A DNA stretch of 64,000 nt. It comes from an uncultured Lentimicrobiaceae bacterium. GTDB lineage: Bacteria; Bacteroidota; Bacteroidia; Bacteroidales; WCHB1-69. Shown here in pieces: positions 2,498-61,993 of this stretch. The translations under genes and the position numbers were made by a program. The DNA is taken from NCBI GenBank assembly GCA_964598505.1, contig CAZRCF010000001.1:73480-137479 (forward strand). The letters are read 5' to 3'. The notes under the pieces are model-generated. The model was not told the origin of the DNA, made no database searches, and was given only the letters and a program-made list of their open reading frames with translations. The number at the start of each line of letters is the position of its first letter. Within the stretch, counting starts at the first letter, position 1.

Positions 2498-4840
2498 ATG
2501 AGTACATTTGCCGATGCATATTCAAGATATTTATCAAACAATTTTAATTATACAAATAAATATAAGACTTTCCGAAAATATTTTAGAAATTCAATTATTT
2601 CTATAACAGACCCAAATTTTATGTCAAAAGCGTTAATTGATAATAAAGATTCTTTTCCAAAATATCCTTATTTTTTTAATGTTTTTGCACGCACAGATTC
2701 TATTAATTTGGTTAAAATTTATAATTCGACAATGGATAATACTGGGAATTTAATGGAGTCTATGGTTGGGTCTTCAGAATTAGCGAAGAAGGAATTTTAT
2801 GATACAGTTCCTTCTTCGCTAGATAGTTTTTTATCAGAAATTAATTTTCAATTTGCATACACCAGTACTCCGATTGATCTTTATAATTATGAATTGATTA
2901 TAAAATCATTTGTAAATGAGTATCAGTATAGAAATTTTTTTAGTGATTTATATGCCCCATTGTTTTATTCTGTTGACCAAATAGAAGGTCAGACTGCGGG
3001 ATTAGAATCAAATAGTTTTCTATATGAGTATATTTTGTACTGTACTTTATATAATACAATGACAATTTCTCATAATATTTATCCTAAAATGTTATTGTAT
3101 TTAACTTATATAAATTCCGAAGCGAATCCAATTGATAGAGTTGATCAACAAGCTATGTTAACTGGATTTTCAACATTTGTTACTAGTTATGCTGATACAA
3201 TAACTACAGATTTAGCAGTTGTTATTGGAAAATCAATGTATGATTTTCAAAATGTTTCAAAAACAATGTTAAAATATTTAACAGAAATAATTTCTGTGGA
3301 ACTTTGTGATTCTGTTAATGGTTTAAATCGAGCATTTTATAATTTTTATAATCCTGTTAAATCTTTAGGACCTATTAATTTTTTGGTTAATAATATTACA
3401 CAACAATTAAATGCTCTTGTTGCAGCGGATCTTGTTACTAAGATTTATACAAATATTAATATTATTGATCAAAATATAATGGATAATAGAACTATAGAAG
3501 AAGATAATATATATTCTGGATTTATGGAGAAACTTTCAGAATCTGAATTAAAAAATTATTTATTTTTATGTTTCTTGTATAAGTTCTGGCCGATAAAATT
3601 TTTAAATATTTTACAATTATCCATTAAAGAATATGTTGAAACTTTAATCAAATCTTCAAATGATAATGTAATGACTCAAGCCAATTATACTACTATTTTT
3701 GAAAATTTTGTTAATAAAGATAATACTAATATTAATTATACTAATTTGAAAATATTTCTAGATGGATATATTTCACCATTAGCAAGTATTGTTGTTGATG
3801 AATATGGAAATAATGCTAAATTTACATTCACAACAGGTTCGACTTTTATTACATGTTCTGATATTGATTCATATAATGCTGTTAATATACATGATTATAT
3901 TTATGCAGATGGTGAATCTTATGAGGTTGGTGGAGATAATAAAAAATACTCAGCTCACGTTGTATCTAAAGTAATTGGAACTCTCACTTTAGTAATTGAT
4001 AATGAATATACAGGATTGATTTCAGGTACGGCTGTTAATGCTTATAGATATTCATTTTCCCCAACAAATTATCTATATAATGCGTTATCAACATCTTATG
4101 TTACTGAATTTTCTTGTATAACATATTATATTTATGTTCTTGAAGAATTTTTCAAATCCACAACTTATAATAATTTTGTTGAAAATTTGACGGAAAAGAT
4201 TTTTACACAACTGAGAGATTCTGGACATATTGATTATACATTTGATTGGTATCAATATCATGATATTATTGATATTTATTTTAAAGTATTTTTAAGATGG
4301 AAATTATTAGATACATCAAAAAGATGTACCCTCTCAACACACGTTAATGCGCATTATAGTTTTACAAAAGATTTAGAGTATGTATATTGCGCTAATATTG
4401 ATTCATATAATTTAATTGCAGATAATACTTTTATATTTTCTGGTCAAGATACAATTGATAATGCAGTTCAAGTTATCGGACATCAAATTGTTGGAAACAA
4501 ATATGTTTTGAATTTAAATTCACATTATCTAGGAACAACAACAGATGTTGGAACAAATGATGTTGCTTACTCTTTTTTATCAACAGATAGCTTATTATTT
4601 GATAATGTGACAAAGAATCTTACAGGTAAATTATTACCACTATTTTTGACAAATTCAAGTCTAGTTCCTGAATATGATATTAATACCTCAATTCCAAGTG
4701 TGGAGGATTTGCAAAATTATTTTAAATCATATTCAAATTCAAATTCATTTGCAAGAAGTATGAATCAATTTAATGAAAATATGATGACTTCAACTGTGAC
4801 AAGAGAAATAATTTATAGCGTTCTATCAGAGTTCGTATAA
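2498..4840 (+). CDS. hypothetical large protein of the virion module
   Basis: 780-aa ORF with AGGAG RBS, tightly coupled to the upstream gene. Confidence 0.6.
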   Translation: MSTFADAYSRYLSNNFNYTNKYKTFRKYFRNSIISITDPNFMSKALIDNKDSFPKYPYFFNVFARTDSINLVKIYNSTMDNTGNLMESMVGSSELAKKEFYDTVPSSLDSFLSEINFQFAYTSTPIDLYNYELIIKSFVNEYQYRNFFSDLYAPLFYSVDQIEGQTAGLESNSFLYEYILYCTLYNTMTISHNIYPKMLLYLTYINSEANPIDRVDQQAMLTGFSTFVTSYADTITTDLAVVIGKSMYDFQNVSKTMLKYLTEIISVELCDSVNGLNRAFYNFYNPVKSLGPINFLVNNITQQLNALVAADLVTKIYTNINIIDQNIMDNRTIEEDNIYSGFMEKLSESELKNYLFLCFLYKFWPIKFLNILQLSIKEYVETLIKSSNDNVMTQANYTTIFENFVNKDNTNINYTNLKIFLDGYISPLASIVVDEYGNNAKFTFTTGSTFITCSDIDSYNAVNIHDYIYADGESYEVGGDNKKYSAHVVSKVIGTLTLVIDNEYTGLISGTAVNAYRYSFSPTNYLYNALSTSYVTEFSCITYYIYVLEEFFKSTTYNNFVENLTEKIFTQLRDSGHIDYTFDWYQYHDIIDIYFKVFLRWKLLDTSKRCTLSTHVNAHYSFTKDLEYVYCANIDSYNLIADNTFIFSGQDTIDNAVQVIGHQIVGNKYVLNLNSHYLGTTTDVGTNDVAYSFLSTDSLLFDNVTKNLTGKLLPLFLTNSSLVPEYDINTSIPSVEDLQNYFKSYSNSNSFARSMNQFNENMMTSTVTREIIYSVLSEFV

Positions 4841-44480: not shown

Positions 44481-44491
44481 TTGTTAATAAT

Positions 44492-58358: not shown

Positions 58359-58370
58359 ATTGTAATTAAT

Positions 58371-59147: not shown

Positions 59148-59222
59148 TGGTAGCGAGAGCTGGAATCGAACCAGCTTATACAAGCTTATGAGGCTCGTGA
59201 GTAACCACTACTTTATCTCGCA
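59148..59222 (-). tRNA. tRNA with a CAU anticodon (Met, or Ile2 if lysidine-modified), CCA encoded
   Basis: Hand-folded. The anticodon arm is CGAGC-CTCATAA-GCTTG and the T arm is GCTGG-TTCGATT-CCAGC. The acceptor is TGCGAGA/TCTCGCT with a U1-U72 mismatch. It starts 7 nt after the Ro60 stop. Confidence 0.75.
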
Positions 59223-59228
59223 ACGATA

Positions 59229-60788
59229 TTAAGCTTCTGACTCGTACTGTTTCATCAGTCGAGCCTTAAATGTATCAAAATCAATTAGAGCTTCAATCAT
59301 CTTGATGATTTTACCATCGAGTCCTGAGATACGGACAACCTTCGAACTGGGTTTGAAGACTGATTTTTGATTAGGAGCTACATTAATTAGCAAGACTTTG
59401 CCTGCCAGATGATCTGGCATAATTCTGCGATATGCTTCAATGTTACACTCCTCTACCCAAGTTACTTCGTCTGTAATGATGACGAACAAATCCATTTCTG
59501 GATTATTCTTCAATGTCCACTCGATAGCATTCATTAATTCAGTACCACCATTACAAACAATTGAATTCTGAATCTTTTTAGCTATATCATTCGGACCGAA
59601 ATTGTTAAGCATGGGTTTAAAAGTTGATGTAATATCTTCAATTCCAGCAGATCCATGTCCTCCGTAGTTTTTCGACGCAAATGTATAGAACTTAAAATCC
59701 TTTAAGAACAATCCATTCAACATCGATAGAAATTTAGAGCCAGTTCGATGTCCTTCTCCTTTCATTGATCCTGATCGATCATATAAAATGACAGGCTTAG
59801 ATGCACGGCACTTAAAGGATACGTACTTTCTGAGAATTTCATCGCACACATCCTCAATTTCTTGAGGAACTCGGATATGTTTATTATATCCACTGTGTTC
59901 GATACTTTCCAGAAAAATCAGATCAAACGGATTGATGAATCTTAATGCAGATCCACCCTGAAAGAGTGAAGTTAAACGAGTTTTCAATGTACCAGCATCC
60001 TCTCCTTCTAAGAACGATAAATTCTTGATGAGTGAATTAATGGGAAGTTTAGCCACGTTTAATTTAACATACTCTTGCTTTTGTTCATGTGAAACACGAT
60101 CATCACTAATCGCTGCAGTTGTATGTTCTGATTTCTCGATCGCTCCAGTCTCTTTATTAACGACTGTTACCAGTTTCGATCCTTTACTATCTTCGATGAT
60201 TGCTTTGTAAAGCAAACTCATTTCAGACGTAGCAGGTTTTGGCTTCAAGATCTTGATTAAGTCTTTCAGTTTGAATTCACGGTTAAGCATCTTACGACGC
60301 TTTAGAGTGAGATCACCATAGGATTCAAGTGACATCCTAAGAGACAAAAATGTTACTTTTGGAATTGACTTTAGACCACCGATAATTCTTCCTTTCCAGT
60401 AACTTAAGAAGTTAGCTAGAAAGTCAGGACGTGTAAACACATCATGAATGATTCTGTAACAGCTATGTCCAGCAGCTTCAAGACGAGCTACCATAATTAC
60501 GGGAGATAATCTGATTCCCATAATTTTTCCCAAATACCACGCGAGAGCGATAACAAACTGAGGTTCAGTTGCAATCAGCTTATCAATTAATCTCTCGAAA
60601 TTTTCCAATTTGGCTTTTATACCAAGATAGAAGCTATTTCGAGGAACGAACGATGAAGCTTCAAGGAACAACGCTTGGTCATTATGCATCTTATAGACTG
60701 TGTAACCTTCTTCGTTCTTGATTTTTTTACTTGCTTTCGCCCTCGCCGCATACACCTTGTTTTTCATCACTTTGTTAATTTTGTACAT
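59229..60788 (-). CDS. rsr: Ro60-like protein (TROVE domain plus C-terminal vWA/MIDAS)
   Basis: NEEGYTVYKMHNDQALFLEASSFVPRNSFY parallels the Ro60 N-terminal pattern N..dGyv....d...l.rfL..Gs..gtYY. The vWA MIDAS residues are YDRSGSM ... GGTEL ... FVIITDE. The ATG at 60788 has an AAAGGAG RBS. The track start at 60842 overlaps the promoter box. Confidence 0.75.
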   Translation of the reverse strand: MYKINKVMKNKVYAARAKASKKIKNEEGYTVYKMHNDQALFLEASSFVPRNSFYLGIKAKLENFERLIDKLIATEPQFVIALAWYLGKIMGIRLSPVIMVARLEAAGHSCYRIIHDVFTRPDFLANFLSYWKGRIIGGLKSIPKVTFLSLRMSLESYGDLTLKRRKMLNREFKLKDLIKILKPKPATSEMSLLYKAIIEDSKGSKLVTVVNKETGAIEKSEHTTAAISDDRVSHEQKQEYVKLNVAKLPINSLIKNLSFLEGEDAGTLKTRLTSLFQGGSALRFINPFDLIFLESIEHSGYNKHIRVPQEIEDVCDEILRKYVSFKCRASKPVILYDRSGSMKGEGHRTGSKFLSMLNGLFLKDFKFYTFASKNYGGHGSAGIEDITSTFKPMLNNFGPNDIAKKIQNSIVCNGGTELMNAIEWTLKNNPEMDLFVIITDEVTWVEECNIEAYRRIMPDHLAGKVLLINVAPNQKSVFKPSSKVVRISGLDGKIIKMIEALIDFDTFKARLMKQYESEA

Positions 60789-60843
60789 GTTATCTCCTTT
60801 CGATTGAGAATAAAATTTATGAGCGGAATTGCCCATATACAAA

Positions 60844-60864
60844 ATTACTATTTCTATATGAAAC
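60844..60864 (-). promoter_or_regulatory. conserved promoter-like box (rsr/tRNA-Met unit)
   Basis: ATTACTATTTCTATATGAAAC on the + strand. Confidence 0.55.
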
Positions 60865-60870
60865 TTTTAA

Positions 60871-60911
60871 AAACAAAAAATAATTCCCCTGCCCATTTTC
60901 ATGGTTAGGGG
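60871..60911 (-). terminator. rho-independent terminator closing the ncRNA unit
   Basis: On the minus strand, CCCCTAACCATGAAAATGGGCAGGGG is followed by AATTATTTTTTGTTT. Confidence 0.6.
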
Positions 60912-60914
60912 AAA

Positions 60915-61420
60915 ATTAGTGAGCATACGAAAGGAGATTCAAAGTTAAACTTTGATCTTTTAATTTTTATTTATAAAATTTAGTCGTATGTAATGCTCGC
61001 TAGCTTTTTAATTTTTTTAGTGACCACTCTTTCGAGTGGCCAAATTGATGCGGATAGTTTATAGAACCCAAGTCTATTGCGGATTTCTCCGCGGCATATG
61101 TAATCCACATCAGCTCTATCGAAACGGATTTCTCCGATTGATTGTGTAACTGCTCCCTATAAAGAAGCAGTCAAATTGGCAGGGATAATTTTGCCGCCAG
61201 CTTTCGTTGGCTTGCCATTGGAGCGAGTTTCCCCGCGATTTTAATTAATTAGATTAATTAGTCGTATGTAATCCCTGCAAGCGAATTTTGCTCCGCGACC
61301 TCGCCGAACCTCATTGGGTTTGACACTCACCGGAGAGCTAATTATAAATGAAACTATCCCGTCGAACAGTTTCACTTTCAAATAAGAGATGAATCCGTCG
61401 ACTCATTCTTATTTTATAAA
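60915..61420 (-). ncRNA. large structured ncRNA candidate (about 500 nt) upstream of rsr
   Basis: It is bounded by promoter box 61421-61441 and terminator 60871-60911, is GC-enriched and has no RBS-led ORF. Four GAAA-capped hairpins lie at 61024-61039, 61079-61092, 61125-61136 and 61196-61211. A 14-nt exact repeat TAGTCGTATGTAAT lies at 60981-60994 and 61259-61272. Two 5' hairpins have related loops, GTCGACGGAT and GTTCGACGGGAT. Confidence 0.45.
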
Positions 61421-61441
61421 AGTAATATTTCTATATGAAAC
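61421..61441 (-). promoter_or_regulatory. conserved promoter-like box (ncRNA unit)
   Basis: AGTAATATTTCTATATGAAAC on the + strand. Its flank ATTTCTATATGAAACTTTTGAAT is identical to the tRNA-Gln box. Confidence 0.55.
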
Positions 61442-61462
61442 TTTTGAATATCAGAAAATTAT

Positions 61463-61993
61463 CTATTTGATTTTATTAATGAATTCCATAAAAAGGGAAC
61501 TAGAAATTTTAGTTTCTTTAGTAGGCGGTGCGAGCTGAGGTTTAGTTTCTTCTGGAATCTTTGGTATAGCTGATTTCATAGTTATTTCATGAATTCGTTG
61601 TCCCATGATTGCTTTCATCTTTGGAATATTAAGTAATTGTTCAAACAGGTCCAATCTTGTAAAGCGACTAGTTTGATAACCTTGATCCGCTATAATAACA
61701 TGAATTTTTTTCCAAGCTCTTGCCGATTGCAATATTGAATTTGCTTCATTAAATGTAATTTCCCTTTTAAGAGAGCTTGCTTTTTCTCCTTCAATATATT
61801 TGAATCGATTCATATCTACGACTTTATCAAGAACATCTTCAATCAATCCTAATATCAATCTTTCAGGAATTTCAAACTCTTTTTTATCATTCCATCTATC
61901 ATCAAGATTTTTAATATCGATTTTCAATTTAATAGCTTCTTTGATTGTTATTTTCTTTTTCTTTGGATCATAGATACTTAAATTAAGTTTCAT
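61463..61993 (-). CDS. hypothetical protein
   Basis: 176-aa ORF. Confidence 0.55.
   Translation of the reverse strand: MKLNLSIYDPKKKKITIKEAIKLKIDIKNLDDRWNDKKEFEIPERLILGLIEDVLDKVVDMNRFKYIEGEKASSLKREITFNEANSILQSARAWKKIHVIIADQGYQTSRFTRLDLFEQLLNIPKMKAIMGQRIHEITMKSAIPKIPEETKPQLAPPTKETKISSSLFMEFINKIK

Follow-up and report, generated by a model that had tools for sequence, protein, structure and literature searches.

The window analyzed here, a 64,000-nucleotide (nt) stretch of contig CAZRCF010000001.1 deposited as an uncultured Lentimicrobiaceae bacterium, comes from a large uncultured phage and contains, on its - strand, a 620-bp gap (60843-61462) between an open reading frame (ORF) of 176 amino acids (aa) and a gene for a Ro60-like protein. 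The gap is best explained as encoding one transcript with three tandem Y-RNA-like modules (M1, M2 and M3) behind a leader composed of two hairpins (HP1 and HP2) and a G+C-rich element (E1), and not as one large ornate RNA. The modules are likely the RNA partners of the phage Ro60. They would form a subfamily of Y RNAs marked by the GAUUACAUA scaffold, Y-RNA-like by architecture and genomic context and distinct from YrlA. Conservation of Ro60 and its Y RNAs extends from bacteria to humans, and Ro60 is a major autoantigen. To our knowledge, RNA recognition by Ro60 is poorly defined outside animals, and few Y RNAs have been described from bacteria or phages. That phage Ro60 genes can have Y-like RNAs next to them had already been documented, as had the binding of these upstream RNAs to Ro60 and PNPase (PMC4201824, PMC12135203). 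The GAUUACAUA scaffold, its promoter-to-terminator arrays of up to seven modules, their interleaving with tRNAs and the swappable cargo appear to be undescribed in the searchable literature and in Rfam 15.

Module Architecture and Covariation

An earlier note, made from the letters of the window, had proposed a structured RNA next to a Ro60-like gene. The identity of this gene was confirmed. Its 519-aa product matches Pfam vWA_Ro60 (6.8e-7), and a profile of 25 homologues matches the Ro60 of the Thermus phage phiLo (9KOP/9L5Y) over its full length, positions 14-486, with E = 1.7e-31, and those of Xenopus and human at about 1e-8. These matches indicate that the Ro60 label is sound. Loci encoding Ro60 homologues, of which 44 were found, were gathered from metagenomes, assemblies and IMG/VR. 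The module found in these loci consists, in this order, of a 5′ flank G(U/C)(A/U), six variable bases, GAU, UACAUA(Y/A)(G/C), an insert, AUC, the complement of the six variable bases and finally RAUUU or GCUUU. Each module of the window has an 8-9-bp closing helix formed by its own two ends, GAU-UACAUAYG on the 5′ strand, a variable apex and a 3′ tail RAUUU followed by a stable hairpin, which in the case of M3 is the terminator. The three have in common only the ~9-nt motif and this architecture; they are not near-identical repeats. The 14-nt repeat recognized in the earlier note at 60981-60994 and 61259-61272, with a degenerate copy near 61095-61104, turned out to be the conserved motif of M3, M1 and M2. 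Two of the long-range pairings proposed there, GCAGGGAU/AUCCCUGC and GAGCAU/AUGCUC, correspond to the closing helix of M1 and that of M3, respectively, whereas a third, GCUUGC...GCAAGC, occurs in no predicted or consensus structure.

Under a strict filter, 24 non-redundant loci and the window together contained 47 modules on the Ro60 strand and two on the opposite strand. Of the 115 motif-like sites found on the Ro60 strand, 65 had a partner strand that included the required tail, versus 3 of 41 on the opposite one, and the rate was 4.3% once the downstream sequence had been shuffled. In a set of 59 distinct modules, each of the nine closing-helix pairs had changed on both sides (151 cells), and the covariation score was 0.823 as opposed to 0.188 for shuffled data (none of 500 shuffles reached 0.823) and at most 0.19 when the partner was slid. 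The covariation in homologous loci that the earlier note had named as a check was therefore found, and it indicates selection on structure. Since the 59 modules had been preselected for pairing, a covariance model, R1, was built from 22 modules taken from other loci only, with the closing helix as its sole structure. When the whole window was searched with filters off, R1 produced three significant matches, all on the - strand and all inside the gap: M2 (61115-61040, 49.2 bits, E = 1.1e-9), M1 (61283-61171, 31.4 bits, E = 2.9e-5) and M3 (61005-60911, 30.7 bits, E = 4.5e-5). The fourth-ranked match (19 bits, E = 0.037) lies in coding DNA and is devoid of the motif. Across 32 Ro60 loci (160 kb, both strands), the 62 matches at E <= 0.01 were confined to the Ro60 strand, and 40 of them were outside the training set. 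The model can thus annotate these RNAs, which Rfam currently misses.

The scaffold recurs beside Ro60 homologues down to 28% identity. Loci have 1 to 7 modules, whole modules being gained or lost among relatives, and in two loci (L021 and L029) modules are also present downstream of Ro60. At three distant loci (28-30% identity; L019 2248-2915, L022 2323-2907 and L018 436-1013), modules alternate with tRNA genes within a single cluster immediately upstream of Ro60, an arrangement that implies release by tRNA-processing enzymes. A GTDB scan identified two distant Ro60 loci (31% identity), in Anaeroplasmataceae and Mycoplasma metagenome-assembled genomes (MAGs), with no module nearby. In IMG/VR, a single Ro60 protein used as the query returned no locus and an alignment returned two; the pattern TGTAGN6GATTACATA matched 120 stretches, none of which had a Ro60 homologue by tblastn, and their noise-like stems suggest that they are chance matches. 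Neither phiLo nor the crAss-like phage cr106_1 has a GAUUACAUA module or an R1 match.

Other elements were seen in these loci. A conserved insert of ~150 nt that starts with GG(U)GGCGUGGUAGCCUGA(C/U)AUGAA lies between modules in L003 (240-420), L004 (2275-2470) and L033 (2010-2165) and is absent from the window. The inserts of L003 and L033 had no Rfam match at E <= 0.5; the element may be a further structured RNA of the arrays. In cr106_1 (L041, MT774378.1), four repeated units were found downstream of the TROVE gene (3350-3700). Their motif, (U/G)UUAC(A/U)UCA after UAGUGUA-N-ACAGA, looks similar to that of the window but differs from it, and a tRNA-like gene at this locus is split by a long insert that holds one such unit. 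These units may represent a sister class of Ro60-associated RNAs in Crassvirales.

Transcription Unit and Proposed Mechanism

All genes around the array are on the - strand. As the earlier note had stated, the gap has no ORF led by a ribosome-binding site (RBS): the short ORFs in it have no Shine-Dalgarno (SD) sequence and are interrupted by stop codons in relatives, and a search for a conserved small ORF in the gap that could account for the conservation found none. The interior is indeed richer in G+C than the flanks (0.41-0.44 versus 0.24-0.38) and highly structured, with folding z values of -8.1 for the - strand and -5.6 for the + strand. The promoter box that had been described as recurring across this arm corresponds to a 19-mer, AAAGTTTCATATAGAAATA, located at 61444-61426 (-), with identical copies at 60867, before Ro60, and 52155, before tRNA-Gln, and degenerate copies at 58362, 45872 and 44483. 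The - strand carries all six copies in the window, the + strand none. This promoter-like box, TTTCATATAGAAAT, is phage-specific, and its six sites precede the RNA array, Ro60, the DNA polymerase B gene, tRNA-Gln and two other genes; the box upstream of the arrays is conserved in relatives. The terminator reported upstream of Ro60 was also recovered. A simple scan overlooked it because its hairpin has an internal loop, and at the corresponding place relatives have other G+C-rich hairpins with a U run behind them. These signals are consistent with the gap being one transcription unit of ~545 nt on the - strand, with the promoter box (61444) and the terminator (60869) as its limits, and a primary transcript of about 500 nt is plausible.

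The two readings offered by the earlier note were one or several Y-RNA-like partners of Ro60 and a single ornate RNA. The first is favored by the presence of three modules, by the recurrence of their scaffold beside Ro60 homologues and by the YrlA-type domains that the scaffold holds in relatives. In the mechanism that we propose, one precursor would be transcribed from the phage promoter and the modules would probably be freed from it at their conserved RAUUU tails, a sequence in agreement with the RNase E consensus RN↓WUU. The phage Ro60, whose gene lies 130 nt downstream behind the second copy of the promoter, would dock on the closing helix together with the UACAUA segment. The sequence of this helix is free to vary, with GAU at the end of its 5′ strand and a conserved, single-stranded UACAUAYG next to it; the invariant UACAUA occupies the place equivalent to the canonical recognition motif of Y RNAs. 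Partners, for example host PNPase or enzymes that handle tRNAs, would be tethered to Ro60 by the apical domains, acting as effector ends. For modules flanked by tRNA genes, as in more distant relatives, release would come from tRNA processing. Docking and tethering are proposed by analogy with the Ro60-Y RNA complexes of animals, Deinococcus, Salmonella and phiLo. We estimate the probability of this joint claim (phage-promoter precursor, release at the tails, docking through helix and UACAUA, tethering by the apices) at about 0.77.

Several points weigh against this reading. Binding to Ro60 is argued from genomic association and analogy. The sequence GNCGAAN0-1G, shared by known bacterial Y RNAs and for which its authors propose a role in Ro60 recognition (PMC4201824), is absent from the gap (no G.CGAA in 620 nt), and the Rfam YrlA and Y_RNA models have no match between 60700 and 61600 of the window even at E <= 10. 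The distant Ro60 loci of phiLo, the crAss-like phage, the Anaeroplasmataceae MAG and L016 are without such a module. The leader (HP1, HP2 and E1), ~135 nt of the transcript, falls outside the three-module model. Lastly, at least 8 of 9 pairs had been a condition for including a module in the covariation analysis, which makes the figure of 96.8% paired circular; this does not apply to the double changes, to the shuffle control or to the independent covariance model. Regarding the recognition sequence, CGAA occurs twice in the gap, both times within GAAA-loop hairpins, and GNCGAANG has 11 matches in the window and none in the gap. GUCGAC in HP1 and GGCGAG in E1 were considered as near-matches to GNCGAA and discarded as too short to carry meaning.

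Alternative Explanations

The transcript could instead act as one large structured RNA, either of the GOLLD/ROOL kind or as an unprocessed scaffold that assembles several Ro60 rings. The single promoter box and single terminator, with no internal U-tract terminators within the array, would fit such an RNA, as would the z value of the whole region. In addition, phiLo Ro60 forms higher-order ribonucleoproteins with its Y-like RNAs (PMC12135203), and module processing is itself deduced. However, the Rfam scan that had been suggested as a check, made at gathering scores on the whole window and at E <= 10 on the gap, gave matches at chance level only and none to any family in the gap, leaving a GOLLD/ROOL identity unsupported. 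The supported helices are all local to a module or hairpin and none spans the region, and every module retains its own conserved 5′ and 3′ flanks. Relatives vary in length by whole modules (186-862 nt box to box; 577 nt in the window), and the modules of distant relatives are separated by tRNA genes that need excision. That the transcript works as a single large RNA or scaffold is accordingly quite unlikely.

The second alternative concerns the M3 tract that is the exact complement of the Ro60 RBS (Table 1). Its 9-mer is present in a single copy on the - strand of the window. The last module of eight loci has a 10-13-nt exact complement to the respective Ro60 RBS (p <= 0.017 each versus shuffles), ~145-155 nt upstream of the Ro60 ATG, and in L033 the duplex is shifted and longer. 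These matches would be expected if the array were a cis-regulatory leader of Ro60, in which read-through of the terminator places the anti-SD tract of M3 in cis and blocks the RBS, the helices being incidental. Nonetheless, Ro60 has its own promoter box 3′ of the terminator, and the tract is limited to one clade and one module while the scaffold is conserved far more widely, including downstream of Ro60. Moreover, any strong SD complements any anti-SD-like tract, and CGAAAGGAG occurs twice on the - strand, the second time as the RBS (44434) of a small gene behind the promoter box at 44483. A leader function is thus very unlikely to explain the array, and the RBS complement is more probably something additional in M3 than the reason why the array exists. 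The tract may have an antisense or anti-SD function, or the match may just reflect the pairing of anti-SD-like tracts with any strong SD.

That the modules are decayed tRNA or tRNA-like genes, or antitoxin repeats of the ToxI kind, with no functional tie to Ro60 is hardly credible: arrays are indeed found where tRNA genes abound, with tRNAs interleaved in L018, L019 and L022, some modules have T- and D-arms, and type III toxin-antitoxin loci also have repeats, a terminator and a protein gene in this order, but ARAGORN and Rfam find no cloverleaf in the gap, the helix, UACAUA and RAUUU are not tRNA features, the helix covaries, the units are not near-identical, the neighbor is a Ro60 homologue and not an endoribonuclease, and all 62 R1 matches are in Ro60 loci with none elsewhere in the window.

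Elements of the Array

The elements follow one another along the - strand as HP1, HP2, E1, M1, a hairpin, a spacer hairpin, M2, a hairpin, M3 and the terminator. Their coordinates and those of the neighboring features are listed in Table 1.

Table 1. Positions of the RNA array, its signals and the adjacent genes in the window.
Feature	Position	Strand	Details
176-aa ORF	61463-61993	-	Bounds the gap upstream
Phage promoter box, AAAGTTTCATATAGAAATAtta	61423-61444	-	Upstream of the RNA array
HP1, 5′-terminal hairpin	61381-61413	-	UCGACGG in loop region; -12.1 kcal/mol, z = -4.0
HP2, second hairpin	61349-61374	-	UCGACGG loop region; -12.1 kcal/mol, z = -4.6
E1, G+C-rich element	61290-61338	-	Conserved only with L001; module motif absent
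M1, Y-RNA-like module, 102 nt	61178-61279	-	Closing helix GCAGGGAU/AUCCCUGC; motif UACAUACGAC; three apical hairpins, two GAAA-looped
Hairpin after M1, UGACUGCUUCU/GGGAGCAGUUA	61147-61173	-	Begins within the AAUUUG tail; -13.3 kcal/mol, z = -5.6
Spacer hairpin, CGGA-GAAA-UCCG	61118-61138	-	Between M1 hairpin and M2; weak, -4.4 kcal/mol, z = -0.5
M2, Y-RNA-like module, mini class, 65 nt	61047-61111	-	Closing helix GAUGUGGAU/AUCCGCAUC; motif UACAUAUGCC
Hairpin after M2, UGGCCACUC-GAAA-GAGUGGUCA	61021-61042	-	UGGCC...GGUCA; -14.4 kcal/mol, z = -5.5
M3, Y-RNA-like module, last in array, 84 nt	60918-61001	-	Closing helix AGCGAGCAU/AUGCUCACU, one C.A mismatch; motif UACAUACGAC
Tract within M3, CUCCUUUCG	60928-60936	-	Exact complement of Ro60 RBS (60802-60794); 11 nt with flanks, AUCUCCUUUCG
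Intrinsic terminator of the array	60869-60911	-	Hairpin of -15.4 kcal/mol, then AAUUAUUUUUUGUUUUU (U run)
Second promoter-box copy, for Ro60 mRNA	60846-60867	-	Identical 19-mer
Hairpin in Ro60 5′ untranslated region, UAUGGGC-AAUUCC-GCUCAUA	60818-60837	-	-7.1 kcal/mol, z = -3.4
Ro60 SD region, CGAAAGGAG	60794-60802	-	Upstream of the ATG at 60788
Ro60-like gene, 519 aa (P0001)	59229-60788	-	TROVE-like ring and vWA domain (Pfam, family profile)
tRNA, anticodon CAU	59148-59222	-	Encoded CCA end; 7 nt past the Ro60 stop codon (ARAGORN, Rfam)

The four GAAA-capped hairpins described in the earlier note are all present, GCCAAC/GCUGGC with one A.C mismatch, and so are its 11-bp hairpin and the two 5′ hairpins with related loops. 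The latter are HP1 and HP2, the only two sites of UCGACGG in 64 kb on either strand. The stem base of HP1, AAUAAGAG/CUCUUAUU, is kept in L001 and has altered versions in L030 and L010; a stabilizing role would suit this hairpin. GUCGAC/UCGA is self-complementary, and L001 keeps the hairpin pair as GUUGAC and CUCGAC. From their sequences, a loop-loop contact between HP1 and HP2 or a site for a dimeric protein is possible. The fold of E1 does not go beyond that of shuffles (z = -0.6), and compensatory differences between the window and L001 were seen by eye in its outer helix. Two additional G+C-rich elements in L001, the closest relative (2340-2400 and 2690-2790), with a recurring CGGUGA(G/A) that is also present in E1 of the window, account for the longer array of that locus (729 versus 577 nt box to box).

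Unconstrained folding of M1 yields the closing helix (z = -4.1), and L001 has a homologous module. The base of the hairpin that follows M1 is UGAC...GUUA in the window; at the same position, hairpins with the base UGRC...GYCA and a covarying interior were recognized by eye in L001, L003-L005, L030, L033 and L036. The spacer hairpin folds no better than shuffles, and a different hairpin occupies its place in L001. Folding of M2 recovers all three of its helices (z = -3.0), and its apex combines a GCGGA-GAAA-UCCGC hairpin with an anticodon-arm-like hairpin, AUAGA-CUUGGGU-UCUAU. Equivalents of the hairpin after M2, UGGCCAGC...GCUGGUCA, are at the same position in L003-L005 and L036. M3, which folds with z = -3.8, includes an A+U-rich apex and the anti-SD-like tract, and the closing helix of its L001 counterpart, UAUGAGCAU/AUGCUCAUA, is two compensatory pairs apart from that of the window.

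The Ro60 Gene and Its Phage

The true ATG of the Ro60-like gene is located at 60788. Hairpins with covarying stems and similar AAUUC-containing loops, like the one in the 5′ untranslated region of the window gene, were seen by eye in L003, L010 and L030. A tRNA also follows Ro60 in L001 and L003-L005, and from its position the tRNA of the window may be co-transcribed with Ro60. ARAGORN and Rfam identified three tRNAs in the window and none in the gap. The same Ro60 protein is also encoded on contigs of 205 and 257 kb. GenBank phages showed no match to the gap DNA (blastn) or to the Ro60 protein (tblastn), and the phage DNA polymerase B is ~27% identical to T4-like gp43, indicating that the phage is distant from cultured phages.

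Anticodon-Arm-Like Hairpins

M2 belongs to a mini class of modules with a tetraloop hairpin and a hairpin with a 5-bp stem and a 7-nt loop. RNAalifold, applied to nine mini-class modules, retained both the closing helix and the 5-bp/7-nt hairpin in its consensus, and all pairs of the latter show double changes. When all modules were considered, there were 32 distinct 5-bp/7-nt hairpins versus about 10 expected, six of them with T-loops, and eight hairpins versus 0.77 expected had the anticodon-loop pattern YU-NNN-R-N. The mini-class loops CUUGGGU, CUGAUAA, CUUCUAA, UUGUGGU and CUCGCAA all have U33- and R37-like positions, and that of M2, CUUGGGU, has UUGGG in common with the loop UUUGGGA of the tRNA-Pro(UGG) of the window. 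Mimicry of anticodon arms is suggested, but on the basis of six or seven independent loops. A broader reading, which we regard as speculative and rather improbable, is that of a programmable family in which one Ro60-docking scaffold has swappable apices that copy different parts of tRNAs. The mini class, including M2, would then display an anticodon stem-loop and other modules the T/D/acceptor half, acting as decoys for, or guides to, host enzymes of anticodon-loop cleavage or modification, and Ro60 together with an exonuclease would serve as the effector; M3 would be an antisense regulator of the Ro60 RBS and so provide an RNA-protein feedback.

Comparison with Known Systems

The family supplies dozens of natural variants of one docking scaffold, and its motif, UACAUA after a helix of free sequence, is unlike all those described. 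Phages can carry up to seven of these RNAs in one array together with tRNA genes. The family consequently offers a direct way to test the determinants of Ro60 binding and to find what the effector ends recruit during infection.

Like GOLLD and ROOL RNAs, the array is phage-borne, near tRNA genes, richer in G+C than its flanks and has many GNRA hairpins; unlike them, it has no conserved long-range architecture or model match, and its length varies by whole modules between relatives. The RNAs of metazoans and Deinococcus (Y RNAs; Yrn1 and Yrn2) share with the modules a terminal helix with a Ro60-binding internal loop, a variable loop that recruits proteins and a U-rich 3′ end, and Deinococcus Yrn1 has tRNA-like parts that include an anticodon-arm-like hairpin (PMC4201824). 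Differences lie in the recognition sequence, which is GGUCCGA with a bulged helix in animals, in the encoding of metazoan Y RNAs by single genes and in the lack of Rfam-detectable homology to the window modules.

The nearest experimentally studied case is that of phiLo, where two Y-like RNAs, Yrl1 and Yrl2, are encoded upstream of a phage Ro60 that is the closest solved relative of the Ro60 family of the window. A CGAA motif was used to define these RNAs, and in vitro they bind both Ro60 and the PNPase of the host (PMC12135203). The upstream region of phiLo differs from the window in lacking both GAUUACAUA (at up to 2 mismatches) and an R1 match, and in having two RNAs and not a promoter-to-terminator array with inter-module hairpins.

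The comparison with YrlA and other bacterial Y RNAs (RF02553; PMC4201824) is the most detailed. Membership of the window modules in YrlA was ruled out, as they have no model match, no GNCGAA and no tRNA-like domain (T-arm, acceptor-like stem and D-arm). Of the criteria of Chen et al. for bacterial Y RNAs (PMC4201824), only the first applies to them. They have GAU-UACAUAYG in place of GNCGAAN0-1G, keep the 3′ RAUUU tail and the 5′ flank G(U/C)(A/U), and belong to a family with arrays of up to 5-7 modules. The likenesses are in location and form. Bacterial Y RNAs are encoded a few hundred bases from Ro60 on the same strand, often several per locus and in one precursor; M1-M3 share the strand of Ro60 and are 130-490 nt upstream of its ATG, well within the 4 kb used to define Y RNAs. 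Both have an end-paired stem, an internal loop with a conserved motif on its 5′ strand and a modular apex, in a usual length of ~80-130 nt, under which only M2 falls (65 nt).

The scaffold of the window modules itself holds YrlA-type domains in relatives, whose modules reach 27.6-41.8 bits with the YrlA model, its gathering score being 69 bits. In L004, the Ro60 of which is 67% identical to that of the window, module 2580-2710 matches RF02553 at a sub-threshold 36.6 bits (E = 3.4e-6) and encloses a T-arm (ACAGG-UUCGAGU-CCUGU), a 7-bp acceptor-like stem (CAUUCAC/GUGGAUG) and a D-arm (GCUC-AGUUGGUA-GAGC). Other matches were found in L036 (41.8 bits) and L013 (34.1, 29.2 and 27.6 bits). Besides that of L004, a full tRNA-like domain is present inside the scaffold in L036 (28-167) and L013 (999-1136 and 1565-1708), and the T-arm alone in L013 (2757-2858) and L025 (1534-1616). 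L003 is a close relative of L004, and the closing helix and first hairpin of the two modules are identical, the apex of L003 being a short anticodon-arm-like hairpin. This comparison indicates that the scaffold is constant and that the apical domain, tRNA-like in YrlA as in L004, is exchangeable cargo.

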